Part shown: piece after piece, positions 6,245 to 54,698 of the stretch
Numbering within the stretch: the stretch's first letter is position 1
Layout of the letters: each line of letters starts with the position of its first letter
DNA from: an archaeon GW2011_AR10
GTDB taxonomy: Archaea > Iainarchaeota > Iainarchaeia > Iainarchaeales > GW2011-AR10
NCBI GenBank assembly: GCA_000830275.1
Contig: CP010424.1
Span: forward strand, 1,071,311 to 1,135,310
Direction of reading: 5' to 3'
DNA: 64,000 bases
The notes under the pieces: model-generated
The model's input: only the letters and a program-made list of their open reading frames with translations
The model's database searches: none
Told to the model about the DNA's origin: nothing
Translations under genes and position numbers: made by a program

Positions 6245-7816
6245 GTGGTTTTTTTGGCTTCTTCGTTGAAAGAAATTAAAGGAGTTAAAGTTGATTCCTA
6301 CGGTGAAACAGAGATATTTGAGGGCTTCCCTGTTTTTTTCTACTCAGTTGTTCAAGCCCCTCTATCAGAGCAGGAAAAAAACATTGCCTCTCTTTTAAGG
6401 AGCCTGATTGTGGGCAAGATTTCACTTGATGCAGCGCAGCAAAGTTCCGCACTTAAAATCGGCTCAGATTTCTTGGCAGAATTTCAGGACAGGATAATCA
6501 GCACTGTAAACTACAAGGAGGGGCTGAGCAAAATCATGTCCCCAGAGGACTACGATGCATTAAGGGTTGATCTGATTGCCTTGCTTAAACAGTTTTTTCC
6601 TAATCTGAAAAATACTCCTGAGCTGGTGAATCAGGTGCTGGATGCAACGGTTGGCTATGGCAGGATTTCTTCGCTGATGCGTGATTCAGAACTGGAGGAA
6701 ATAATGATTAACGGGTTCGACAGGCCAGTTTTTGTTTTCCACAAAACATTTGGGATGTGCAAAGCAAACCTTGTTTTCCAGAAAGGCCCTGAGCTGGAAC
6801 TATTAATCAACAAAATTGCCAGCACTGTGGGGAAAACATTTGACGATTCAGGCCCGCTGCTGGACGCAAGGCTGCTTGGCGGTAACAGAGCCAATGCAAC
6901 TTATCCATTAGTTACGCCTTTTGGCCCATCGCTTACAATCAGAAAGTTCACTAGAACCCCGCTATCAATAATTGACCTTATTGCGAACAGCACTCTATCC
7001 AGCGAGCTTGCAGCATTCCTTTGGGTTATGGTTGAAGGCTTAAACATTGAGCCAATGAACATTATAATTACCGGCGGCACCGGCAGCGGGAAGACAACAA
7101 CTCTTAATGTGTTGAGCTCTTTTATACGCCATCAGGACAGGATTGTTACAATAGAGGACACTCTTGAGCTTGACTTGGGCAGCCGAGAGAACTGGGTTCA
7201 GCTTGAGTCAAAGCCTCATTCCCGTGAGTCGCCTGAGGTGACAATGGATGACCTGTTAAAGAATGCTTTGAGGATGCGTCCTGACAGGATTCTTGTTGGA
7301 GAAGTTCGTGGCTCAGAAGCAAGAACGCTGTTTGTTGCAATGGACACTGGCCATCAGGGCAGCATGGGGACGTTGCACTCTAACAGCAGCAGTGAAATGA
7401 TTCTGAGGCTGAAGGCTGAGCCCATGGGTGTGCCAGAAGCAATGATTCCGCTGCTTGACCTCATCGTCGTTCAGTACAGGATGTACATTAAGGGAAAGGG
7501 CATTTTGAGGAGGATTGCACAGGTTTCTGAGGTTGCTTCAATGGAAAAGCAGGCCCTGCTCAGCAACGTTTTTGAGTGGAACCGCTCAGTTGACAAGATT
7601 GTTAAGACAGACATTCCAAGCCATATAATGGAAAAGCTGGCCGACAAAACAATGAGAACCAAAAAGGAAATCAGCCGCGAAATTGACGTGAGGAAAAAAG
7701 TGTTTGATTGGATGCTCGCAAACAATATACACTCCACTCCTGATGTTGAAACAGTAATTCAGCGCTACTATTATGATGCTGAAACAATACTTGAACGGGT
7801 TGCAGCTGACTTATAG
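6245..7816 (+). CDS. Type IV pilus/archaellum-type secretion ATPase (VirB11/FlaI/TadA family)
   Basis: Walker A GGTGSGKTTTLNVL, Asp box, His box TGHQGSMGTLHSNS. A paralog of the intein-containing ATPase at 27102-30257. Confidence 0.8.
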   Translation: MVFLASSLKEIKGVKVDSYGETEIFEGFPVFFYSVVQAPLSEQEKNIASLLRSLIVGKISLDAAQQSSALKIGSDFLAEFQDRIISTVNYKEGLSKIMSPEDYDALRVDLIALLKQFFPNLKNTPELVNQVLDATVGYGRISSLMRDSELEEIMINGFDRPVFVFHKTFGMCKANLVFQKGPELELLINKIASTVGKTFDDSGPLLDARLLGGNRANATYPLVTPFGPSLTIRKFTRTPLSIIDLIANSTLSSELAAFLWVMVEGLNIEPMNIIITGGTGSGKTTTLNVLSSFIRHQDRIVTIEDTLELDLGSRENWVQLESKPHSRESPEVTMDDLLKNALRMRPDRILVGEVRGSEARTLFVAMDTGHQGSMGTLHSNSSSEMILRLKAEPMGVPEAMIPLLDLIVVQYRMYIKGKGILRRIAQVSEVASMEKQALLSNVFEWNRSVDKIVKTDIPSHIMEKLADKTMRTKKEISREIDVRKKVFDWMLANNIHSTPDVETVIQRYYYDAETILERVAADL

Positions 7817-22231: not shown

Positions 22232-22630
22232 TCACGGACAGCGTGTTTCATATGGTGTGCCAGCGTTCACACTTAGTTTGAATTCGGATGTTGGACTCAG
22301 TTCCCATGCAGTTGAATCATCCACCGTGGTTATAATTTTTTGGCAATCAGAAGCGCTCAAACGAAAAGTTTTAGGAACTGTGTTAGCATCAATATTGACT
22401 GTCGGCGGGGCTCCTGTTACCTCGATTTTTTCAATGAAGTAGGCCTCTTCTAGGCTTTCATCAGTGGCGAATATGCTCACCAGCTTTTCCTTCACAATTG
22501 CGGGTGCGACCACGTAATCCACCACCTCAAAAAAGTTTCCCATTATTGCAGTTCCGACTATGAAGATCGCAGCGGTAACGAAAATTATTTCAAAGCTGGA
22601 TTGGCCTTTTTCTCTGAGCATGGAAACCAA
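22232..22630 (-). CDS. Pilin-like protein (class III signal peptide)
   Basis: MVSMLREKGQSSFEIIFVTAAIFIVG. Confidence 0.5.
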   Translation of the reverse strand: MVSMLREKGQSSFEIIFVTAAIFIVGTAIMGNFFEVVDYVVAPAIVKEKLVSIFATDESLEEAYFIEKIEVTGAPPTVNIDANTVPKTFRLSASDCQKIITTVDDSTAWELSPTSEFKLSVNAGTPYETRCP

Positions 22631-22631
22631 T

Positions 22632-23114
22632 TCAGATTCTTACTTCAACTTCATCAGCGGTAATTTTTTGAACAATAACCCTTTTCATCTGCGGTCCCTC
22701 AATTTCTGTGCCGTTAATACAGCGAAGCGTTATTTCTTCCAATATATCAAGGTCAAGAGCGCATTTTCCTGTGGCATCACAGGCAGGGTGCGATAAATCA
22801 GTGTTTATAAGCTCTGTTTCAAATCCAATCTTTTTTGTTGCTTCTTTGCAAAGCACTTTGCTTCCAGCTGGAACAAAAACAGTTATTGTCTGCTTGGTGT
22901 CAATGCCAAGTGTTCCTACAAGGTTTGTTGTATTAGCGATTTTTTCGGCTGCAAGCCTTGCTTCAGCCAGCCGTGCAACCTCTTTTGCACTGTCAACTGC
23001 AAGATTCACGTTTGGCTGGATAATTGTCTGAATGAACAGCAGCATTACTGCTACAAGGAAAATGAACTCGATTGCTGCCTGCCCTCTATTGCCTTTCACA
23101 GAAAAAAATTCCAA
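22632..23114 (-). CDS. Pilin-like protein (class III signal peptide)
   Basis: KGNRGQAAIEFIFLVAVMLLF. Confidence 0.5.
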   Translation of the reverse strand: MEFFSVKGNRGQAAIEFIFLVAVMLLFIQTIIQPNVNLAVDSAKEVARLAEARLAAEKIANTTNLVGTLGIDTKQTITVFVPAGSKVLCKEATKKIGFETELINTDLSHPACDATGKCALDLDILEEITLRCINGTEIEGPQMKRVIVQKITADEVEVRI

Positions 23115-24214
23115 ACCAAATCACCAACCAACTGAAGCAAAATATATGCAATTAATACTGCCGGAACAAACGGCACTGACTTTTTTACCGCCAGTTTGTT
23201 TTCAAGCTTTTTTTCATTCACCAGCTTTTTTAATTCCCTTATCTGCTCTTCTGTGAGACCACCTGCGGCCCTGCTGCTTGCAAGGATTCTTCCAGAAGGC
23301 CAAATCAGGCGCCTGACAGCGTCTACATTATTATTTCTGAAGTGCTTTATAATTGTTCCGATGCCTGCTTTTTCAAGCCTTTTCACTTTCCCTTTTTCTT
23401 CCACAATTGTTTCCCCGGAAATCATTCCCTCTTCCAGGGCAGTTATTTTAACGTTCTCTGCCAAAATTTCCCTGCTTGCAAAGTAAAGCTTCAGCAGCAG
23501 GAACAGGAAAAGCAGAGGCAGAAAAACCATTAAAGCGCCCTGAAGCGCAGAAACATAGTCAGTGTACAGCGCAAACGCAAAAACCACGGCTACAACAACG
23601 GCACTGATTTTTTTTCTCAAAAAACCAATTGCAAGCAGCATTGGCAGCACAAACAGTGCATCAAGCCTCATTGCTGCAACAACCGCGCTTAAGCCAGCAA
23701 CTAATATGCTGAAAGCCGCCAGATGAACAAACCTCTTTTTTATTTCAGCAAAAACTTTTTCCGAAAGGTCCTTGTTTTTTGCAATGCCGTTCAGTGAAAT
23801 CATTGCACCGTAGGGGAACATTGCGAATACGCTGAAAACAAAAAGCCAGAACGGGAAAACAGGCAAATGAATTGAAGCAAATAACGCCCCGTTCAACCCA
23901 ATTAAATCCCTTAATACTCCGTAATTAACGGGGTTCAATGCTGCGAGGCCAGTGAAAAGCTTTACATCGCCTCCAGCCCACACGCCGAGCTTCCACAGCA
24001 GCATTGCTCCGAGGAACGTTCCAATTGTTGCAATTCCAGAAAACAATATGAAGCCAAAATCATCAGTTAGAAATGAAAGGAACAAATGCAGGAGCAGCCC
24101 CAGCGCAATCATGGAGTAAGTTATTTTGTCTGAAACAATCCTTTCCCTTAAATCAGTGTAGGTTGCAACAGCAAGCAGGATAAAGGAAATAGAGAAAAAG
24201 AGAGCGGCTGCCAA
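23096..24214 (-). CDS. pibD: Prepilin/preflagellin peptidase (A24 family, PibD/FlaK-like)
   Basis: First catalytic Asp region TYTDLRERIVSD and second motif VWAGGDVKLF (GGDVKL); polytopic. Confidence 0.75.
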   Translation of the reverse strand: MAAALFFSISFILLAVATYTDLRERIVSDKITYSMIALGLLLHLFLSFLTDDFGFILFSGIATIGTFLGAMLLWKLGVWAGGDVKLFTGLAALNPVNYGVLRDLIGLNGALFASIHLPVFPFWLFVFSVFAMFPYGAMISLNGIAKNKDLSEKVFAEIKKRFVHLAAFSILVAGLSAVVAAMRLDALFVLPMLLAIGFLRKKISAVVVAVVFAFALYTDYVSALQGALMVFLPLLFLFLLLKLYFASREILAENVKITALEEGMISGETIVEEKGKVKRLEKAGIGTIIKHFRNNNVDAVRRLIWPSGRILASSRAAGGLTEEQIRELKKLVNEKKLENKLAVKKSVPFVPAVLIAYILLQLVGDLVWNFFL

Positions 24215-24226
24215 AACAACCCGCCC

Positions 24227-24409
24227 TTAGTTTTCAAGTAGAGAGCTTATTGTCGAGTCCCTGCTTTCAAGTATTTGCTGCTGTGCAACGTTTGAAACTG
24301 TCACAACCTGTAAAGCGATGACTGAAGCAGCCAGCACCAACAGCAACGCAAATGTTACTGTTATGAGGTATTCAAACGAAACCTGTGCTCGCTGCTCCAT
24401 GGAGATCAC
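24227..24409 (-). CDS. Small pilin-like protein
   Basis: MISMEQRAQVSFEYLITVTFALLLVLAA. Confidence 0.45.
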   Translation of the reverse strand: MISMEQRAQVSFEYLITVTFALLLVLAASVIALQVVTVSNVAQQQILESRDSTISSLLEN

Positions 24410-24418
24410 TTAACCCTG

Positions 24419-24766
24419 TTATACTCCAGCGCCTGGAGCGTTACAATTGGATGTTGGTATGAGTGGTGCTACTGGTGTTGGGTCATATCTTGATTTACAG
24501 ACTGTACTTGGTGCTGTTCCTGCAGGGCCGCAATAACATGTAACATTGTCTGGACCTATAACTTGTATTGAACCAACTAGCACATTAGTGCAACTCGTAG
24601 TTGTTGCCGGGTATTTTATGCACAAAGCATCAAATGCTTGTTTTTTTGATTCTGTTCCTCCGCTGCTTCCTAACCCTGATATTACACTGATGACTATCAC
24701 TGCAACAAGCACTGCTCCGCCGATTAACAGCAGGTATTCAAGTGCACCTTGTCCTTTTTTTTGCAT
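24419..24766 (-). CDS. Pilin-like protein (class III signal peptide)
   Basis: MQKKGQGALEYLLLIGGAVLVAVIVI. Confidence 0.5.
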   Translation of the reverse strand: MQKKGQGALEYLLLIGGAVLVAVIVISVISGLGSSGGTESKKQAFDALCIKYPATTTSCTNVLVGSIQVIGPDNVTCYCGPAGTAPSTVCKSRYDPTPVAPLIPTSNCNAPGAGV

Positions 24767-24847
24767 TCCTTGACCTCCTTTTAAAGTGTTTAAAGCATTA
24801 ATTTACTTATAATAATTCTTTCTTCTATTTAAATGTTTTGTGCTTTA

Positions 24848-25024
24848 AGGCGTTGATTCGAAGCCTGTAACTGTTCTTTCAAGTTCTTCCTTTGCTTCCT
24901 GCTGGCCTGTTGTTGCAATGCTTTTCAAGTACAAGCCAATTATTGCTGCTGTAAGAGTTATTCCGCCCAAAATCAGCAGCAGTTCAACTGAACTCTGCGC
25001 TCTTTCCTCCTTCAATAGCCTCAT
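24848..25024 (-). CDS. Small pilin-like protein (58 aa; not in the ORF track)
   Basis: Manual translation: MRLLKEERAQSSVELLLILGGITLTAAIIGLYLKSIATTGQQEAKEELERTVTGFESTP. Confidence 0.4.
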
Positions 25025-25957
25025 TTAACTCACCAAGTTCATTGAAAGCAATTGCCCTAAAATATAGGTAGTGTAAGCCACAAGTAATAGGATTGGAAAG
25101 TATATAATGCTTTTGCTTATCCTGCCCTCCCTCATAATTGCAATTACTAGGCTTGCTGCAAAAACCTCTACAAGGAGGTAAATTTGGATGCCTAGGTTAA
25201 TGATGCTGCTTGCGCTCTCAGCCCTCTGAATAATCAACTGGTCTTTGCTTATTTTTGCTGCAGTGCTTATCAGCACTGAGCTTATTGTTGCCACGAAACC
25301 GAAAATTAGTGGCGCAACGAAGCCTCCAGCAGCAACCATGAACAGCACTTGGAGAATTGTCCTAGTTTTTCTTTCAGCATTAATTCTGTGGATTGCCCTT
25401 ACATCCTCGCTTATTTCATCCAGAATGTCCGCGAGGCCTGCTCCTGCTTTCACTGAGTCAATTATGATTGTGACGGTTCTCTTCACAAGCCTTGAGTCCA
25501 CGTTCTGGCTTAAAGAGCTTAGCGCTGTTTCAAAGTTGTCTCCTTCCTCAAGTTTTCTAAGAACAGTGTTGATTTCTTTTTTCAAATAACCATATTCAGC
25601 GCTTGCAACTTCTCGCAATGCATACTCGTAAGTGCCACCAGCCCTTAAAGTGTCAGCCATCTGCTTTAATGCATCAGAAAGGTTCCTTTCAATGTCGTCA
25701 ATCCTCTGCGATGCCTTAAGGTAAGGGTAGCCAATCATTATATCGGCTATTACAAGGAACATAATAATTCCAAGCTGCCAGAGCTCTGGCACCAACAGAA
25801 TTATTGCCGCACCAACAACAAACGAGACAAGGAATGAAAGAATTATCCAAAGTACTGGGTCAACCTTGAAGTCTATTTGCTTCAAGTAAAGAGAGTACTT
25901 TTTTAGGAAACCGATTCTTTCCAGCAGCGGGATTTTTTTGGTTAAGTCAAGTGTCAT
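25025..25957 (-). CDS. TadC/FlaJ-like pilus assembly membrane protein (T2SS-F domain), part 1
   Basis: Cytoplasmic T2SSF-like helical domain (ALKQMADTLRAGGTYEYALREV...SVKAGAGLADIL) between TM segments. Confidence 0.6.
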   Translation of the reverse strand: MTLDLTKKIPLLERIGFLKKYSLYLKQIDFKVDPVLWIILSFLVSFVVGAAIILLVPELWQLGIIMFLVIADIMIGYPYLKASQRIDDIERNLSDALKQMADTLRAGGTYEYALREVASAEYGYLKKEINTVLRKLEEGDNFETALSSLSQNVDSRLVKRTVTIIIDSVKAGAGLADILDEISEDVRAIHRINAERKTRTILQVLFMVAAGGFVAPLIFGFVATISSVLISTAAKISKDQLIIQRAESASSIINLGIQIYLLVEVFAASLVIAIMREGRISKSIIYFPILLLVAYTTYILGQLLSMNLVS

Positions 25958-25960
25958 TCA

Positions 25961-27124
25961 TCACACCCTCGGTTGGACAAATTTCAGGTAAACAAGCAAA
26001 AGCGCAATAACAAGCGGCATTATCAGCGCGTAAAAGATTATTATAAACTGTGGAGTAAGCTGGAATGCCTGTGAAAAGTTTACTCCTAATGGTGCATTGG
26101 TTACTGCGCCAATTATTGCTACAAAAACAGGCAGAACAATTGCACCGAAAATGAATATTACCCCAAAAAAATTCATTTTTTCCGCGAAGTCCCTTATCTT
26201 CATTCTCAGCTCGAATGAAACGTCCTCAGCGATTTCCCCCATAACGTTTGAAAGGTTGCCGCCGGTTTTAAGCGCCCTGATGACGTGGAACAAGGCGCTC
26301 CTCAGCGCTCTTGACTGGGTTCTCAGCGCGAAGTGCCTTAACGCGTCTTTAGTGTCAGTGCCCTCCTCTATCTCATTAATTGTTCTTGAAAACTCGTCTG
26401 ATAAAACCCCGTAATCTGACTGCGCTATTGCCTGCAGCGCTTTGTAGAGGCCTATTCCTGCCTTTAATTCTGTTGCCATGTGCCTTAATGCGAAAGGAAG
26501 TTCAACACTCATTTCGTCGCCTCTTCTTTGAGCAATTGTCTTGGGTATAATCATCACAAGTATGAGCGTAATGAAGAAGAACAGGATTCCAATCAACAGC
26601 GCGCTCCAGATGGGCCATGCCCATAAAAACGAGACTATTGCCCCTATGACCATTCCAAAAATCAGGCCTATTGCGGCTGAAGCAACGCTTAATGCAAGGT
26701 ATTGCTGCGCTGAAAACTTCATGTTTGCGCTGTAAAGGTAGTATGCTAACTCTTTTGCTATTGGAAACCTCCTGAGGTTTCGGGTTAGTGGCTTGAATAG
26801 GAACTGGAATGAGAGGTAAAAGTTTCCAAGCTGCCTTATTATTGGGGATCTAAACTCTTTCAGCTCTTCAACAGGCTGAACGTTTATTTTTGCTGCTTCC
26901 CCTTCCGCTATTATGCCGCGCAGCTCGCTAAGCCTTCCCCCAACTTCTTCAAATTCAATGCCTTGCTCGCGGTACTTTTTCTTCATTTTGGCGACTATTT
27001 TTTCAACCTGCTCCAGGTCAACGGTTTCCGGCTCGGCTAATTCATCCTTTCCAGGGGCTTTTATGTCTGCCTTCTTGCTCTCAATTTTTTTCCTTAAGTC
27101 ATCAATTGAAGGCACGCTTTCCAC
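25961..27124 (-). CDS. TadC/FlaJ-like pilus assembly membrane protein (T2SS-F domain), part 2
   Basis: ELPFALRHMATELKAGIGLYKALQAIAQ T2SSF-like domain. Together with the previous gene this resembles a split two-domain FlaJ/TadC. Confidence 0.6.
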   Translation of the reverse strand: MESVPSIDDLRKKIESKKADIKAPGKDELAEPETVDLEQVEKIVAKMKKKYREQGIEFEEVGGRLSELRGIIAEGEAAKINVQPVEELKEFRSPIIRQLGNFYLSFQFLFKPLTRNLRRFPIAKELAYYLYSANMKFSAQQYLALSVASAAIGLIFGMVIGAIVSFLWAWPIWSALLIGILFFFITLILVMIIPKTIAQRRGDEMSVELPFALRHMATELKAGIGLYKALQAIAQSDYGVLSDEFSRTINEIEEGTDTKDALRHFALRTQSRALRSALFHVIRALKTGGNLSNVMGEIAEDVSFELRMKIRDFAEKMNFFGVIFIFGAIVLPVFVAIIGAVTNAPLGVNFSQAFQLTPQFIIIFYALIMPLVIALLLVYLKFVQPRV

Positions 27125-30100
27125 CCCTGCTCAGCAGGTATTTTTCGCATTCAGTTGAAACCCTGTTTATGTCCCTTACATCAGTTTCAACCAACTTCTT
27201 TAACACTTTTTCCCTTTCCTTAATTTCCGCTTCAATCTGTTTTCTTTGCATTCCTGTAAACCTTTCAAGCACTTTGAGGTAATTAACTGGCGCACTTGTT
27301 CTCTTTAAACTGTCCGTTGCGGCATCATACTCGAATATTGCCTGGGTTTTTGTTTTTCCTTCAAGCACGCCGTATACCTCAGAAATTTCTGTAATCCTCC
27401 TGATAGTACCCTTCTTTTTGTCGTGTAGCCTGTGCTCAACAATTATGAAGTCAAGGCCGCTCATCATTATTTCCGGCACGTTCATCGGGGGAGAAGTAAT
27501 CCTTACAATTGTTTCCTCCGGCGAATTAGCGTGAACTGTGCCAAGGCAGTTTGAAACAAATAGGCCGTTTGCAATGTAATTGTGGTTGTCTTTTACAGTC
27601 AAGTCATACATATAACCATTGAACTCTTCTTCTTCAATTTTCACAATTTCCTCAAATCGGAAATCTGAATTGACTAGCATTAAAACCTCTTTGCCCATTG
27701 AAGTGTTAGCGGTAATATTTGCGATTTTTTCTAGCTGGTTTCTTGAAGGGCTTCTTTTATTTGTTTCATATGCCTCAATGGTTGACCTTGTCTGCGTTCC
27801 CATTAATGAAGCCAGTTCTGTTTGCGTCATTGAAGCATCATTTCTTGCTTTTCTAATCAGTGCAGAAATTTTTGGGAACAAATCTTTTGCATTTTTTGAA
27901 CTTAAAATTAATTTTTCAAGTTTTTTACTTTTTTCAGCATGCCCAAATCCTATTTTGTTTGCAAATTTTTCTAAATTGTCCTTTCCATAAATTGATACCC
28001 TATAATATGGCCCAATTTTTCCTTTTCCGTCCCTTTCTTGGGTGTTTAGCGATGAATGAATGCCAAATCTTTGAATTATCATTGGAAGCTTTCTGGCTAT
28101 CCTGGGGTTGGAGGTTGAAAACTGAATTGATTGAGAGTGAAGATTTACGTGAGCATCTGCATCAAATAAGCCCCTGATAAGTTTTCCAAGCCCTGATTGG
28201 CTCGCGGTCAAAACTTTTTTATTTAATTCAAAAATTTTTGTCTTGTTTCCAAGAGGGATGTCATATTCGTTTACGATTTTTTTGACCAATTTTTTGTCAT
28301 AAACATTTACTCTTGAAAAGCCACCGAAATCTTTGATTGAAATCTTATTTTTTGTAACTTCCCCAATTCCCCTTTCAAAACTTTGTATAAGGGACGGTTC
28401 TTTGTTAACAAACTGGATTCCTTCGCTGTGGATGTGCCCGTCTCCGTAAATTAAACCCATAAGATACGGTTTAATTATTTCTTCACTTGCATTAATTGGA
28501 ATTTGCTTTGGAAACGCAATAAAGTCCCCTTTTTTTGCTTCTTCTGCATTTATTTCCTGAATGCCATTGTTTATTCTGTAAATGGGGTGGTCTTCAGTTA
28601 ACCTAATTTCTTTGCCTGACTTGGTTTTAATTCTTCTAATTTTTTGTCTTGCATTTTTTCTCCAAACCCTTATTACTGGGTTATCCTCAATTTTAAACGT
28701 TTTTTTGTTGAAGCTTGGGACAAATATTTCCCCCTTAATATCAACAAATTCAAAGTCCCCTTCTTTTAAGGGATTTTTTTCCATGAATTTATTTTCAACA
28801 AAATTTCCTATTTCCTCAATGTTGCCATTAGAAAACTGAATTAATGTATCGCCTGTTGTTGCACCATCATGGCCCGTATTCATTGCAGTGAACAATGAGA
28901 ATGCCTCATCGTGCCTTATTTCTCCTACAATTATCCTGTCAGGCCTCATCCTCAAAGAGTTCTTGGTTAAAATGTCAAGGCTTATTTCTCCTGTTCCTTC
29001 AATGCCCGGCGGCCTTCCCTCAAACCTTATCCAGTGCTTGAGCGGAAGATTCAATTCAGCAGTGTCTTCGATTGAAATAATTCTCTCGTGCCTTGGAATA
29101 AATGATGCCAGCACGTTCAATGTTGTTGTTTTGCCGCTTCCAGTGCCGCCTGAAATGACAATGTTTGCAGGCTTCACTCCCATGCCTTCAACGCAAGCCC
29201 ACAGAAAAGCTGAGGCTTCCAGTGTCACAGTGTTCATTTTAATCAAATCAATCATGGAGAAAGGGTCTCCCCTAAATTTCCTGATAGTTAAAGTTGCACC
29301 GCTGACTGAAGCCGGAGGGATTGTTGCGTTGACCCTGCTGCCGTCAGGCAGCCTTGCATCCAGAAGAGGAGCCGAAATGTCAATCCTTCTTCCCACTTGC
29401 CGTGCAATCCTGTTAACCAAGTCAATTATTTCTTGGTCAGAGAAAAACTCAATGTTTGTTGTCATCATCTCATACTGCCTGTGGAAAACGTAAACAGGCT
29501 GGCCTTGGCCGATAACCATTATTTCCTCAAGTTTGTCGTCGTTAACCAGCGGGTCAATCATGCCGTAGCCAACCATTTCTCTTACAACTGCATCAGCGTA
29601 AAAGTCAAACCTTGAGGCAGGAATGTTTAATTCAGGCGAGCTGCGTATTATCTCCATTATTCGCTGATAGTAAACGTTTCTTTTCTGCTCCGGGTCCCTG
29701 ATTTTGTAAGGAGTGATGCTGATAATTCTTGTTGCCGCTTCCTTTATGGTGTTAATGATTGTTTTCTCTGTGCCAGCGGAGCGCGGCACCGGAGTCCAAT
29801 AGTATAGCAGGGGCTCCCCCTCAACCCTGTAAATTTTTATGTTCCCATAAGAGTCTATTTCCTCCTTTTCTGCCTGCTCCATTTGTTTTTCGGTTTTGGA
29901 TTTGGCTGTCTTAACTGGAAGGCGCTGTTCAGTTGCAGGGGCAACTTCCAAAGCCTCTTGTTCTGTTTCCTTAACTGCTTCGGGTTTTTTTCTGGAGCTC
30001 GGTTCCTTTACTGATTCCCTTGGAATAACAATTTTTGTAAAAATTTTTGCAGGCTTAAACGGTTCTATTTCAGCAGGGGCTGCTTTGCGTTGAGCTTCTC

Positions 30101-30257
30101 CCTCCGGCATCCTTTTGAGGGCCTCAATGATTTTCTGCTTCTTTTGTTCCTTCTCTTCCTCGGCTTTTGAGTCAGCAACGCCTGCCTTTTTCTTCTTCAT
30201 TTGCTCAATCAAGTCACCCATATAGCTAGGCATGGCTAATCCATTATGAAGACGCAT
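27102..30257 (-). CDS. VirB11/FlaI/KlbA-type secretion ATPase interrupted by an intein
   Basis: Walker A ISGGTGSGKTTTLNVL. The His-box reads TGHDG|A...N|CLGTVHANS, where the paralog (6245-7816) has the uninterrupted TGHQGSMGTLHSNS. Long charged N-terminal extension. Confidence 0.8.
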   Translation of the reverse strand: MRLHNGLAMPSYMGDLIEQMKKKKAGVADSKAEEEKEQKKQKIIEALKRMPEGEAQRKAAPAEIEPFKPAKIFTKIVIPRESVKEPSSRKKPEAVKETEQEALEVAPATEQRLPVKTAKSKTEKQMEQAEKEEIDSYGNIKIYRVEGEPLLYYWTPVPRSAGTEKTIINTIKEAATRIISITPYKIRDPEQKRNVYYQRIMEIIRSSPELNIPASRFDFYADAVVREMVGYGMIDPLVNDDKLEEIMVIGQGQPVYVFHRQYEMMTTNIEFFSDQEIIDLVNRIARQVGRRIDISAPLLDARLPDGSRVNATIPPASVSGATLTIRKFRGDPFSMIDLIKMNTVTLEASAFLWACVEGMGVKPANIVISGGTGSGKTTTLNVLASFIPRHERIISIEDTAELNLPLKHWIRFEGRPPGIEGTGEISLDILTKNSLRMRPDRIIVGEIRHDEAFSLFTAMNTGHDGATTGDTLIQFSNGNIEEIGNFVENKFMEKNPLKEGDFEFVDIKGEIFVPSFNKKTFKIEDNPVIRVWRKNARQKIRRIKTKSGKEIRLTEDHPIYRINNGIQEINAEEAKKGDFIAFPKQIPINASEEIIKPYLMGLIYGDGHIHSEGIQFVNKEPSLIQSFERGIGEVTKNKISIKDFGGFSRVNVYDKKLVKKIVNEYDIPLGNKTKIFELNKKVLTASQSGLGKLIRGLFDADAHVNLHSQSIQFSTSNPRIARKLPMIIQRFGIHSSLNTQERDGKGKIGPYYRVSIYGKDNLEKFANKIGFGHAEKSKKLEKLILSSKNAKDLFPKISALIRKARNDASMTQTELASLMGTQTRSTIEAYETNKRSPSRNQLEKIANITANTSMGKEVLMLVNSDFRFEEIVKIEEEEFNGYMYDLTVKDNHNYIANGLFVSNCLGTVHANSPEETIVRITSPPMNVPEIMMSGLDFIIVEHRLHDKKKGTIRRITEISEVYGVLEGKTKTQAIFEYDAATDSLKRTSAPVNYLKVLERFTGMQRKQIEAEIKEREKVLKKLVETDVRDINRVSTECEKYLLSRGGKRAFN
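27549..28862 (-). mobile_element. Intein (438 aa, Ala1-type like Mja KlbA) with LAGLIDADG homing endonuclease
   Basis: Inserted exactly between G465 and C904. Starts with Ala, ends ...NHNYIANGLFVSN, with C as +1. Two LAGLIDADG motifs (LMGLIYGDGHI, LIRGLFDADAHV) plus an HTH-like segment. Confidence 0.75.
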
Positions 30258-30363: not shown

Positions 30364-31494
30364 TCATTTAGTGGCTTGCGCTTCCTGTTTTCCCATGAAG
30401 CCGTCAAGCACATTTAGGTTAAAGTTGAACAGGAAAACGTAAACAGGAGTTAAAACTAGCAGAATCACATACTGCAGTGCCACAAAAATTGCAATCAAAA
30501 TCGTGGCTCCACCCAGTGCAACAACAATTAATAGCGCCATATTTCCCTGCAGCACCGGGTAAAGCAGAACGCCTAGTGCGATCACTGCAATCATAAGAAA
30601 AACCGTGAAAATTGCCACAAAAAGCCCTATGATAAAGGCTAGTCCCATCAAAACAAGCAAGAACGCTATCTGCAATGCAATCAAAATGACTAGCTCTACG
30701 GGTTTGCTGAAACCTATTAGAATTCCCTGCAATAGTGCGCTGAAAGCATTAATGTTTTTCCTGTACATCAAATAAACGCCGAACTGCCCCAAAAAATAAT
30801 TCACCGCTGCAAAGAATACCAATCCGATAATTCCTACAACTGCCAGGAGCACAAGCGTGCTCGAGTCCTTCAAGAAAGCAAGCTGCGGCAGAACGCTTTC
30901 AAGCCCCAAGCCAGGTGAAAATAGATTCCAGAAAAAGCCAATCAATGCAAGAACCAAGAAAACAAGAAACGGAAGCATGGCAAGAAAAATCATTGTTTCA
31001 AGCAGTGAGAGGCTGAATCCCTTTGAAATGTTTGATGGAATTGATCGAACGCTTACTTCGCCTGTTTCAGCGCCTCTTATTGCGGAAAACATTGCTGCGT
31101 TCCCCAAAATCCTTAAAAAAAACATAATGACGAACAGCACTATTAACACAACGATTATCCAGAAAATTATTCCTTCAAAATTAATTTCCGAATCATTAAG
31201 CACTGCTAAAGCGCTTGCAATTGTATCGACATTGTTTTCTTCCTGTGCAACTGAAGAGCTGATGCCATTTTCGAGGCCGCCTGATGGTCTTTCCTGCAGC
31301 ACATCAAAAAAACCTGAAAAATCTCCTGAACCAAAATTGAAGTTTGCCCCACTATAGAAGCCGCTGCCAGTGAAAAGAGTGAAAACAAGGAGAATGAAAG
31401 CAAATCGCAGCCACCTTCCAACCATGTTCGGTTTGTTAAAGAAGGCTTCTGTCTGCTTGAAGCTTTTTCCCAGTGCATCAGTTGCGATCGGCAT
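30364..31494 (-). CDS. Polytopic membrane protein, hypothetical (end of pilus locus)
   Basis: ~8 TM helices, Gly/Phe-rich loop. Confidence 0.4.
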   Translation of the reverse strand: MPIATDALGKSFKQTEAFFNKPNMVGRWLRFAFILLVFTLFTGSGFYSGANFNFGSGDFSGFFDVLQERPSGGLENGISSSVAQEENNVDTIASALAVLNDSEINFEGIIFWIIVVLIVLFVIMFFLRILGNAAMFSAIRGAETGEVSVRSIPSNISKGFSLSLLETMIFLAMLPFLVFLVLALIGFFWNLFSPGLGLESVLPQLAFLKDSSTLVLLAVVGIIGLVFFAAVNYFLGQFGVYLMYRKNINAFSALLQGILIGFSKPVELVILIALQIAFLLVLMGLAFIIGLFVAIFTVFLMIAVIALGVLLYPVLQGNMALLIVVALGGATILIAIFVALQYVILLVLTPVYVFLFNFNLNVLDGFMGKQEAQATK

Positions 31495-52538: not shown

Positions 52539-54698
52539 TTGATTCGAATGAAAAAATTTTTTTCACAGTTGTTTGTGCTGCTTTTTCTGGTTTTTTTTAT
52601 TCCGTTCGTTGCTGCACAGGACTGCACTATTAAGCCAAGCTGCCTTGCTTCAGAGTTTGCAGTTTTCTCTGTTCCAAGCACAACAAATGCTCACGCGTCA
52701 ACCGCTGTTTCTGGTGCAGGCTCTTACTCCAATAAAGTCTGCTGCCCGTCCTCCGAATTTTCGGGCAACAGCTGCAGTGATCCAAATAAGGACGTTGCCC
52801 TGAACCTTTACAATGCAATGAACTCGCATGTAGAGCAGGATGGTTTGGGCAATTACTTTAATCCCGTTTGCCTTACTGCTGCAACGCAAGTAACCTGCTG
52901 GTACACAAGCGATGATTGTTCTGTTGCTGATGGTGTTGGAGTTGCAAGCATCTGGGATGGGCTCTGGGAAACAGGGGATGCAATTCAAATCACTAACGCC
53001 CACGTTGAGCAATACAATGGCTCGGGCAATTACCCGATAAACGTTTGCTGTTCTGCTTCGGCTCCCTCAACTGATGTTTGCGGTGACGGAACCGTTTCAG
53101 GCACAGAGGTTTGTGATCCTGCCCAAACTCCTGCAGAAATTGCGGCAATCTGCGGTGCAGGCAACGTCTGCGTTCCAGCTGGCCTTGCAACTGAATGCAC
53201 TTGCAATGCGCCTCCGATAGTGCAAATCATTGCACCTCCTGATGGGGCATCGTATGACATTGATGATGACATGCCCGTGTTGTTTGAAGGAACTGTAAGT
53301 GATATGGATGATGGCACAATATTTAACAGGTTTAATCCTCCTCCTCTTGGAAGGGTTGTGTGGCAGTCAAGCCTTGAAACAGTTGACGGCGGTTTCTTTG
53401 GTTGGGATGCCTTGTGGTTTGAGCGCCAGTTAACAAAAGTCGGAACACACACAATAACCCTTTATTACACTGATTCTGAGGCAGCGCAGGCAAGCACTAC
53501 TGTTGACATCACTGTTTCGCAGTGCAGCGATGGAGCAGTTACAGGAGATGAAGAATGCGACATTGGCGGCATTAGTGGCGCGCCAGCCGTTGCATGCACG
53601 AACCCGGTTCAAACATGCAACCTTGACTGTGAATGTGTTTCAGGCCCTGCAACCCCAACATGCAATCTTTCAGTATCAGATAACACTGTCGGCCCCGGGG
53701 ATTCAGTAACAGTTGACGTTTCATTGGACGATTTTTCTACAAATCCTACTACATTTGGCAGCGTTTCATGCGGTGATGCTGCCTCATATGAAGCAGACTT
53801 TTCCTGTACCGGCAACAATTGTTCCTTTTCCTGCGGCCCTTACTCAGCCAATGGAACAATAGAGAATTTGCAGTTGAATGATGGCGTAACAACTGTAACT
53901 TGCAGTGGCGCGGTTGATATTAGTGTAGGCTCTCCAAGTGTGCCTTCGTGTTCAATTTATGCAATCCCCACAACAGTTGCTTCCGGTGGAAATGTTCTTG
54001 TAACTTTCATTTACTATGATTTCTCTGCAACCCCAAGCTTTTTAGGAATTGATTGCGGCAATGGCGCAACCCCAAGCTCCTTTAATTGCGCACCAACGTG
54101 CTATCTTACCTGCGATTCTTACTCAACCAATGGAACAATTGAGAACGCGGTTTTAAGTGATGGCGGAACCTCTGTTAACTGCGCAAACTCATATAATATT
54201 ACTGTTTCAGGCGGCCCCGGTCCAGGGCCTGCAGGAGATATTTGGGGTGTGAAGCTTTTGGCAAGCGATGATTACAATTCTTCGTCAAACTTTAGGGTAA
54301 TGGTTAGCATTACAAATTTTTCCACCGCACAAAAAGACGCTGATATTACTGTGCAGCTTGTTGACCACTTAAGCGGGCTGCCTCTTTCTCCAGCAATAAC
54401 TGCAACAAAAACCATGCTTGTTGCCGGAAACAGCTCTACGCTTGATGTGGAATTCATTGAAGCAGATTTCTCTTCACCAATTCTTCCGAGAAATTACAGA
54501 GTTGTTGCTTCCGTTCCTGCCTACAATGATGGCATAACAATTGAAACTGTTATCGGAAACAATACTGATAGTAAAGTTGTTGTTGTCGGCGAGGCAAAGG
54601 CTGTTGCAATTTCCGAGCTGCCTTTGGAGCTTGTTGCAGTCATAGCTTTGGTTGTTTTAAGTATTCTTGGCGGTGCAGTTCCAGCCAAAAAAAATTGA
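52539..54698 (+). CDS. Large Cys-rich cell-surface protein with C-terminal TM anchor
   Basis: Signal peptide MKKFFSQLFVLLFLVFFIPFVAAQ; an internally duplicated Cys-rich domain (CTGNNCSFSCGPYSANGTIENLQLNDG / CAPTCYLTCDSYSTNGTIENAVLSDG); C-terminal hydrophobic helix then KKN. Confidence 0.6.
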   Translation: MIRMKKFFSQLFVLLFLVFFIPFVAAQDCTIKPSCLASEFAVFSVPSTTNAHASTAVSGAGSYSNKVCCPSSEFSGNSCSDPNKDVALNLYNAMNSHVEQDGLGNYFNPVCLTAATQVTCWYTSDDCSVADGVGVASIWDGLWETGDAIQITNAHVEQYNGSGNYPINVCCSASAPSTDVCGDGTVSGTEVCDPAQTPAEIAAICGAGNVCVPAGLATECTCNAPPIVQIIAPPDGASYDIDDDMPVLFEGTVSDMDDGTIFNRFNPPPLGRVVWQSSLETVDGGFFGWDALWFERQLTKVGTHTITLYYTDSEAAQASTTVDITVSQCSDGAVTGDEECDIGGISGAPAVACTNPVQTCNLDCECVSGPATPTCNLSVSDNTVGPGDSVTVDVSLDDFSTNPTTFGSVSCGDAASYEADFSCTGNNCSFSCGPYSANGTIENLQLNDGVTTVTCSGAVDISVGSPSVPSCSIYAIPTTVASGGNVLVTFIYYDFSATPSFLGIDCGNGATPSSFNCAPTCYLTCDSYSTNGTIENAVLSDGGTSVNCANSYNITVSGGPGPGPAGDIWGVKLLASDDYNSSSNFRVMVSITNFSTAQKDADITVQLVDHLSGLPLSPAITATKTMLVAGNSSTLDVEFIEADFSSPILPRNYRVVASVPAYNDGITIETVIGNNTDSKVVVVGEAKAVAISELPLELVAVIALVVLSILGGAVPAKKN

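Follow-up and report, generated by a model that had tools for sequence, protein, structure and literature searches.

At a single gene, the chromosome of the archaeon GW2011_AR10 poses the question of how a type IV pilus ATPase whose His box is split by 438 extra residues can be made whole, and whether the segment that splits it is still able to move. The gene lies within a 64,000-nucleotide stretch of contig CP010424.1 (positions 1,071,311 to 1,135,310; here called the window, with all coordinates counted from its first letter) and encodes a precursor of 1051 residues. Here we show that the insert is, by all of the sequence and fold criteria tested, a real class 2 (KlbA-type) intein, for which splicing activity is predicted. 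We propose with high confidence that it is a mobile class 2 intein that combines a HINT splicing domain with a monomeric LAGLIDADG homing endonuclease of two motifs and a helix-turn-helix (HTH) domain, and that is inserted in the His box of the archaeal pilus ATPase.

The limits of the insert can be read directly from the translation. The sequence TGHDG (host residues 461-465) is followed by a GCA codon for Ala (28860..28862), the insert closes with the residues FVSN, the next codon is TGC for Cys, and CLGTVHANS begins at host residue 904. Translation thus reproduces exactly the limits proposed in a first-pass annotation of the window, with Ala first, VSN last and Cys at +1. In intein-free orthologues, the two sides are contiguous (TGHDG/CLG or TGHEG/CMG, the slash marking the insertion point). 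The same holds for the paralogous ATPase that the annotation had used as its intein-free reference, in which the site reads TGHQG-SMGTLHSNS without interruption. Because Gly abuts Cys, Ser or Thr in the intein-free orthologues and the edge residues Ala and Asn are not repeated in the flanks, the boundaries are fixed. The insert is in frame, and the intein-bearing open reading frame (ORF) is free of frameshifts and stops. The TGH...T.H segment of the host ATPase is, as we take from established knowledge of the family, its His box, and the insertion point falls between the two histidines, in keeping with the proposed location inside this box. The His-box histidine touches the gamma-phosphate in CpaF and PilB (PMC11300603). 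The likely true start of the host ATPase is Met9 at 30233, given that orthologues begin MPSYM...; a protein record look-up with this probable Met9-start form gave no match, the Met1 form of 1051 residues being the one recorded.

Taken alone, the insert matched the Pfam profiles Intein_splicing (2.3e-26), LAGLIDADG_3 (5.2e-19) and HTH_3 (1.6e-8), each of them scoring better than its curated cut-off. As the annotation had anticipated, its top match among all PDB sequences was the M. jannaschii (Mja) KlbA intein MJ0781 (2jmz/2jnq; 4.1e-29), the alignment falling into two segments, one for the N-terminal and one for the C-terminal half of the splicing domain; the next matches were PI-TkoII, the CDC21, TFIIB and RadA mini-inteins and, over the central part, the TliVMA intein. 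An AlphaFold2 model of the intein with short extein stubs (TGHDG + intein + CLGTV; 21-sequence family alignment) had a mean predicted local distance difference test score of 92.3 and a predicted template-modelling (TM) score of 0.90. Comparison with the PDB using Foldseek matched the whole chain to TliVMA (E 1.2e-27, TM 0.79/0.81), PI-PfuI, PI-TkoII and PhoVMA, the HINT part to Mja KlbA and other mini-inteins (root mean squared deviation of 1.8-3.2 A over ~125 residues) and the endonuclease core to I-DmoI and I-Tsp061I (TMt 0.64-0.71). Signals of this size in Pfam, the PDB and Foldseek are well outside what chance would produce.

These matches bear on whether the insert could instead be an ordinary lineage-specific domain of the ATPase. 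The 120 orthologues with the closest exteins share 67-77% identity with the host and bear, for the most part, the annotations Diapherotrites/Iainarchaeum, 'archaeon' or Micrarchaeota. In 118 of them the site is uninterrupted (TGHxG followed directly by C, S or T, then xG), and the remaining 2 carry mini-inteins there; a syntenic locus in a related genome (L003) encodes a 599-residue intein-free ATPase. Nothing was found in favour of an ordinary domain. The absence of the insert from 118/120 orthologues with a seamless junction, the intein, LAGLIDADG and HTH profiles and the agreement with solved inteins in both sequence and fold refute it, leaving it a next to negligible probability.

Class 2 inteins are defined by the lack of a nucleophile at residue 1 together with the lack of the Trp-Cys-Thr triplet of class 3; they use Thr at B:7 and His at B:10, and in Mja KlbA, Asp at F:4 and Tyr at F:15 are important as well (PMC2807308). 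Every member known so far is an orthologue of KlbA in which residue 1 is Ala and G:6 is Ser (PMC4031507). Each of these marks is found in the window intein (Table 1). Its blocks A, B, F and G are all intact, and the arrangement of a first Ala, a terminal Ser-Asn and Cys+1 that the annotation had singled out is the class 2 signature described in both papers (PMC4031507, PMC2807308). The triplet positions (B:12, F:4 and G:5) are occupied by Ile94, Asp420 and Val436, so that the triplet is absent, and the intein contains no cysteine, which leaves Cys+1 as the sole thiol available for the chemistry. The insertion site agrees as well: in Methanocaldococcus sp. 16A (P0004, locus L038) the gene reads TGHDG/ALAYDEPIYLS...GGIIVSN/CSGTLHANS, and other Methanocaldococcus and Methanothermococcus genomes have KlbA inteins at the identical site. 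From this shared TGHDG/...SN/C junction it follows that the window intein occupies the position of the prototype KlbA intein, which bears out the suggestion of an allelic site.

We propose that the gene would be translated as the 1051-residue precursor, with the ATPase site split by the intein, and that three chemical steps would then join the exteins. An N-terminal thioester is impossible because residue 1 is Ala; the thiol of Cys+1 would instead attack the Gly465-Ala466 amide directly, with assistance from Thr89 and His92 of block B and Asp420 of block F, to give the block G branched thioester intermediate. Cyclization of Asn438 would release the intein, and an S-to-N acyl shift would leave the native TGHDG-CLGTVHANS in a mature ATPase of ~613 residues, its His box restored across the predicted junction TGHDGCLGTVHANS (predicted spliced-ATPase peptide TGHDGCLGTVHANSPEETIVR). 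In Mja KlbA, Cys+1 has been shown to attack the N-terminal amide directly (PMC2807308, PMC4031507). A different route, in which Thr2, Thr3 or another internal residue acts as first nucleophile in a class 3-like manner, might be entertained since residues 2 and 3 are both Thr in the window intein and relatives at the site can also begin with Ser, Met, Val or Arg. However, positions 2 and 3 vary across the family (L, V, I, T, N, A...), F:4 is Asp rather than Cys, neither the triplet nor an internal cysteine is present, and the closest characterized relative, Mja KlbA, uses the direct attack (PMC2807308, PMC4031507). We therefore regard another route as extremely unlikely.

Were the insert unable to splice, the ATPase gene would be a pseudogene, its pilus function lost or taken over by the paralogue. 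A second T2SSE ATPase is indeed encoded in the window, and in a relative (L001/L012) the host gene is spread over three frames. But the paralogue is an orphan that lacks T2SSF partners; all residues known to matter for KlbA splicing are conserved; and the exteins are strongly constrained, the N-extein core (residues 136-465) being 80% identical to that of a related intein-bearing ATPase, P0126. The remaining pilus operon, downstream of the ATPase, is intact, an indication that splicing has to restore the ATPase, and we consider a dead insertion very improbable.

The central part of the intein has the make-up of a homing endonuclease. Model residues 137-308 adopt, judging by secondary structure, the pseudo-dimeric alpha-beta-beta-alpha-beta-beta-alpha fold, and both LAGLIDADG motifs retain their catalytic acidic residues, in line with the earlier view that they are intact. 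Of 14 full-size relatives, 13 have Asp or Glu at the catalytic position, the eighth of the motif; only P0130 departs from this, with Lys as its second catalytic residue. In the alignment with TliVMA, the endonuclease of which is active (PMC8966425), Asp236 falls on the equivalent Asp. The annotation was right about an intein with a LAGLIDADG endonuclease and overlooked a further component, the XRE-type HTH at intein residues 336-383 (34.9 bits against a cut-off of 23); the accessory-domain helices lie at model residues 338-402, in the position of the HTH-like accessory domain of the TliVMA intein. In endonuclease-associated archaeal inteins this accessory domain is helix-turn-helix-like (TliVMA, PI-TkoII) and modulates DNA cleavage (Beyer et al., PMC8966425). 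A hidden Markov model (HMM) of the family found the HTH in all 27 full-size members from DPANN archaea and Methanococcales, as well as in P0199, one of two class 1 inteins at the site, and in the mini-intein P0134. The narrow HTH HMM did not detect Thermococcales-like copies, a miss that we do not take for absence, since HTH-like segments can be seen in these copies in the alignment.

Once excised, the 438-residue protein would act as a homing endonuclease on intein-less alleles, with a predicted cut around ...AATACGGGCCATGATGGT/TGCCTTGGCACAGTTCAC... in the reconstituted site and additional DNA contacts from the HTH; repair with the intein-bearing allele as template would then insert a copy of the element. 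The candidate intein-less site assembled from the exteins of the host gene, TTCACTGCAATGAATACGGGCCATGATGGT/TGCCTTGGCACAGTTCACGCTAATTCGCCG, is identical at the DNA level to the intein-free L003 allele at 43/60 positions and to the paralogue in the window at 33/48. From these features we infer an active homing element, with respect to both endonuclease activity and target site, and it is somewhat probable that the endonuclease is active today.

How the intein is distributed indicates what mobility would have to explain. A word-index search with the intein alone returned 5 proteins, and an exhaustive search of representatives together with a genome scan was needed to recover the family. The exhaustive profile-free search yielded 80 proteins at E <= 1e-30, and inteins occupy the TGHxG site in 21/156 proteins examined, the window copy included. 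When one genome was scanned for each species, an intein turned up at the KlbA site in 27 species, 16 of full size (434-438 residues) and 11 with mini-inteins; all 27 end in SN/C and 24 begin with Ala. The family is thus sporadic, its carriers belonging mostly to DPANN archaea and Methanococcales. The genomes that hold fifteen of the full-size copies go by the labels Iainarchaeum, Micrarchaeota, 'archaeon' or, once, Candidatus Falkowbacteria; the sixteenth copy belongs to Methanothermococcus sp. Ax23. The rarity that the first-pass annotation attached to this arrangement matches the literature consulted, with five orthologues in 2009, but 27 species-representative genomes carry it. The exteins of P0126, whose intein is 68% identical to that of the window, and of the intein-free P0007 are 86.5% identical, which shows recent gain or precise loss. 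The exact 1051-residue host protein occurs on 17 contigs from several metagenomes (JGI 3300025308, ENA assemblies), and the neighbouring threonyl-tRNA synthetase (ThrRS) links the population to groundwater project PRJNA268031 and to the NCBI metagenome-assembled genome (MAG) GCA_013332025.1.

Several points weigh against an intein that splices and still moves. It is present in every contig of the window population examined, so that it may be locally fixed, with an endonuclease that selection may no longer maintain. Across related hosts, the identities of intein and extein co-vary, a pattern that mainly vertical descent with losses fits as well as frequent homing does; inheritance by descent, with losses on repeated occasions, accounts for much of the presence and absence of the element. 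The comparison of intein with extein divergence was accordingly dropped as a test for transfer, the two identities moving together. In Methanothermococcus alone, the intein is slightly closer than the extein (45.8 versus 42.3%), a difference too weak to call. Base composition was also rejected as a sign of recent horizontal arrival. The third-codon-position GC content (GC3) of the intein is 0.306 against 0.460 +/- 0.047 for 35 window genes, 3.3 standard deviations lower and below every one of them, with host-like exteins. The offset is nevertheless family-wide: intein GC3 is below extein GC3 in 10/11 related hosts, by 0.03-0.17 at loci of 30% to 51% GC, and follows host composition from 0.14 (~30% GC locus) to 0.56 (51% GC locus). 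The deficit is therefore a family trait without a transfer signal. Some archaeal inteins that bear an endonuclease domain of normal fold, among them PhoVMA, are inactive (PMC8966425), and for the window intein both splicing and DNA cleavage are activities that we infer.

The local fixation, the host-following divergence and the precedent of PhoVMA would equally suit an intein in which splicing is intact and the endonuclease dead, a fixed and vertically inherited passenger on its way to becoming a mini-intein. Mini-inteins are common at this site, with P0003, P0094 and P0114 adding to the 11 found among the 27 species; P0134 has lost its LAGLIDADG core, and the Lys of P0130 replaces a catalytic residue. 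Set against this, Asp141 and Asp236 are both present in the window intein, frameshifts and stops are absent, and the architecture of 434-438 residues is kept nearly to the residue in 16 species. The endonuclease core is also conserved at least as well as the splicing domain (69% versus 62% identity with P0126, 54% versus 53% with P0001). We consider a dead endonuclease possible but rather unlikely, and retain the mobile class 2 intein as our preferred interpretation.

Several kinds of intein occupy the KlbA site: class 2 copies of full size whose endonucleases are intact, relatives in which residue 1 is Ser, Met, Val or Arg, one in which G:6 is His, and true class 1 inteins. Inteins that end in SN/C begin with Ser in L014, Met in P0131 and L051, Val in P0130 and P0132 and Arg in P0094/L033, and P0129 has Ala1 with His rather than Ser at G:6. 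In P0173 and P0199, class 1 inteins (Cys1...Gly-Asn/Ser+1) sit at the same TGHDG/ site of related ATPases and share the LAGLIDADG and HTH-like layout of the class 2 copies, the HTH model detecting that of P0199 only. If all of these variants do splice, they form a natural series on how the N-terminal nucleophile was lost. P0134, a host protein of 857 residues, has a 236-residue mini-intein at the KlbA site in which the whole LAGLIDADG core is gone and the XRE-type HTH is intact; this retention may be no more than an accident of deletion, or it may hint at a separate use for the HTH. The strict conservation of the HTH in full-size members and its survival in this one endonuclease-less mini-intein suggest that the excised intein might bind DNA beyond homing. 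As a joint proposition, a KlbA-site population far larger and more varied than the literature describes together with such a DNA-binding role of the excised intein appears doubtful.

Further variants concern the host genes. P0190, an orthologue of the paralogue in the window, carries a 172-residue class 2 mini-intein (TGHQG/ALAGD...FIVSN/CMGTLHSNS), so that both ATPase paralogue lineages have been invaded. The L011 ORF (1524 residues) and P0130 (1594 residues) have a second, class 1 intein with a LAGLIDADG-like core in the Asp-box region, with junctions TIED/SV...FVHN/TAELNLP (Ser1, His-Asn, Thr+1); the window gene is uninterrupted there (ISIEDTAELNL). In L001/L012, an Iainarchaeum MAG from Lac Pavin (JAPLVQ010000108.1, 530..3375), the breaks in the intein-bearing ATPase gene fall near host residues 370-381 and 955 and reflect either a pseudogene or assembly errors.

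Table 1 Coordinates of the host gene, the intein with its blocks and domains, the pilus operon and the paralogous ATPase
Feature	Coordinates	Strand	Evidence or detail
Host gene, T2SSE/FlaI/CpaF-like type IV pilus ATPase precursor, 1051 aa	27102..30257	-	ORF, Pfam T2SSE 3.6e-39
N-extein, host residues 1-465, ends ...AMNTGHDG (His box, first half)	28863..30257	-	
Intein, 438 aa, class 2 (KlbA type), host residues 466-903	27549..28862	-	Sequence, Pfam, PDB, model
C-extein: Cys+1 (TGC, 27546..27548), LGTVHANS (His box, second half), to stop codon	27102..27548	-	
Block A ATTGDTLIQFSNG	28824..28862	-	Ala1 (GCA), invariant in one family alignment
Block B GKEIRLTEDHPIY	28578..28616	-	Thr89 (B:7), His92 (B:10); B:12 is Ile94, not Trp
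LAGLIDADG homing endonuclease core, intein residues ~126-320	27903..28487	-	Pfam LAGLIDADG_3, fold matches
LAGLIDADG motif 1 LMGLIYGDG, Asp141	28431..28463	-	
LAGLIDADG motif 2 LIRGLFDADA, Asp236	28146..28181	-	
Accessory domain: linker and XRE-type helix-turn-helix	27687..27902	-	Pfam HTH_3
HTH_3 match, intein residues 336-383, MTQTELASLMGTQTRSTIEAYETNKRSPSRNQLEKIANI	27714..27857	-	34.9 bits, cut-off 23
C-terminal part of splicing domain	27549..27686	-	Aligns with Mja KlbA residues 133-166
Block F YMYDLTVKDNHNYIA	27570..27614	-	Asp420 (F:4), His427 (F:13), Tyr429 (F:15)
Block G NGLFVSN	27549..27569	-	Val436 (G:5), Ser437 (G:6), Asn438 (G:7), then Cys+1
T2SSF membrane protein	25961..27124	-	Pfam
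T2SSF membrane protein	25025..25957	-	Pfam
Small class-III-signal pilin-like ORFs (three)	24845..25024, 24419..24766, 24227..24409	-	N-terminal sequences
A24 prepilin peptidase with archaeal C-terminal domain Arc_PepC	23096..24214	-	Pfam
Further pilin-like ORFs (two)	22632..23114, 22232..22630	-	N-terminal sequences
Intein-free paralogous T2SSE ATPase, 523 aa, site TGHQG/SMGTLHSNS (Ser at +1)	6245..7816	+	

The intein-bearing ATPase gene opens a type IV pilus operon, the downstream part of which spans 22232..27124 (-), and the whole is a complete Tad-like archaeal pilus locus. Five small ORFs within 22232..25024 have class III signal-like N-termini (for example, MQKKGQGALEYLLLIGG and NRGQAAIEFIFLVAV) and flank the A24 prepilin peptidase. 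At the L003 locus the pilus genes follow the same order, and Class_IIIsignal and Peptidase_A24 are matched there as well; this locus runs Nre, ThrRS, ATPase, two T2SSF, pilins, A24 peptidase, TctA and phosphoglycerate mutase. In the window and in contigs of the same population, ThrRS and the ATPase are separated by the gene for a DUF7544 membrane protein (30364..31494, -), which is absent from L003. With its intein in the His box of the pilus motor, the operon is one in which pilus assembly should depend on splicing. The other window genes are those of an ordinary archaeal chromosome, including CDC48, topoisomerase I, Elp3, a Pelota/eRF1-like protein, the beta-subunit of phenylalanyl-tRNA synthetase, RFC and the CCA-adding enzyme. 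No second intein was found in the window by tblastn and the family HMM in six frames, nor any intein domain in its CDC48, RFC, topoisomerase and aminoacyl-tRNA synthetases. A 719-residue ORF at 52539..54698 (+) has no Pfam match at E <= 1e-5 and combines an unusually high second-position GC content (GC2, 0.50) with a low GC3 (0.38).

To our knowledge, class 2 is the least populated intein class and has been studied almost entirely through Mja KlbA (MJ0781; 2jmz/2jnq), its prototype. The window intein shares with it the host family and the site (TGHDG/A...SN/C.GT.HANS), as well as Ala1, Ser at G:6, Asn at G:7, Cys+1, the block B sequence LTxDHP and the block F sequence YDLTVxDNHxYIA, with 46% identity over the aligned HINT core (Foldseek). 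Whereas Mja KlbA is a mini-intein of 168 residues with no endonuclease, from a hyperthermophilic methanogen, the window intein has 438 residues with a LAGLIDADG core and an HTH, in a mesophilic groundwater DPANN archaeon (Iainarchaeia/Diapherotrites-like). It also lacks the GKxxG insertion that precedes block G in Methanococcales copies. P0127 (Methanothermococcus sp. Ax23, L025), P0181 and P0185 have full-size inteins at the same site with the class 2 marks and the same order of HINT, two LAGLIDADG motifs and HTH-like domain, 42-46% identical to that of the window. Sequences of the P0181 and P0185 type (~520 residues) are presumably Thermococcales-like; in the Thermococcales-like copies, additional sequence is inserted ahead of the first LAGLIDADG motif and the HTH has diverged.

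The window copy and its roughly 16 full-size relatives in DPANN archaea show that class 2 inteins are common in small-genome groundwater archaea and still travel with an intact-looking LAGLIDADG endonuclease and HTH. In practical terms, the window copy offers a probably mesophilic, cysteine-free class 2 intein for protein engineering and a candidate for a new meganuclease specificity. Among inteins of known structure, TliVMA (7qss), PI-PfuI (1dq3) and PI-TkoII (2cw7) have the same three-domain build, with the accessory domain between the endonuclease and the C-terminal HINT half, but are class 1 (Cys1/Ser1), reside in other host genes (V-ATPase, ribonucleotide reductase and DNA polymerase) and are 14-19% identical to the window intein, the accessory domain of which, unlike theirs, is a recognizable Pfam HTH_3 (XRE). 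Class 3 inteins (for example, mycobacteriophage Bethlehem DnaB) likewise have no nucleophile at residue 1, but they need Trp(B:12)-Cys(F:4)-Thr(G:5) and usually have Thr or Ser at +1 (PMC2807308), where the window intein has Ile, Asp, Val and Cys. Set beside these systems, the chemistry, the architecture and the insertion site are already known and no principle is changed; what is new is the DPANN host lineage, a full-size copy with an intact-looking endonuclease and a family larger and more varied than the literature's five orthologues.

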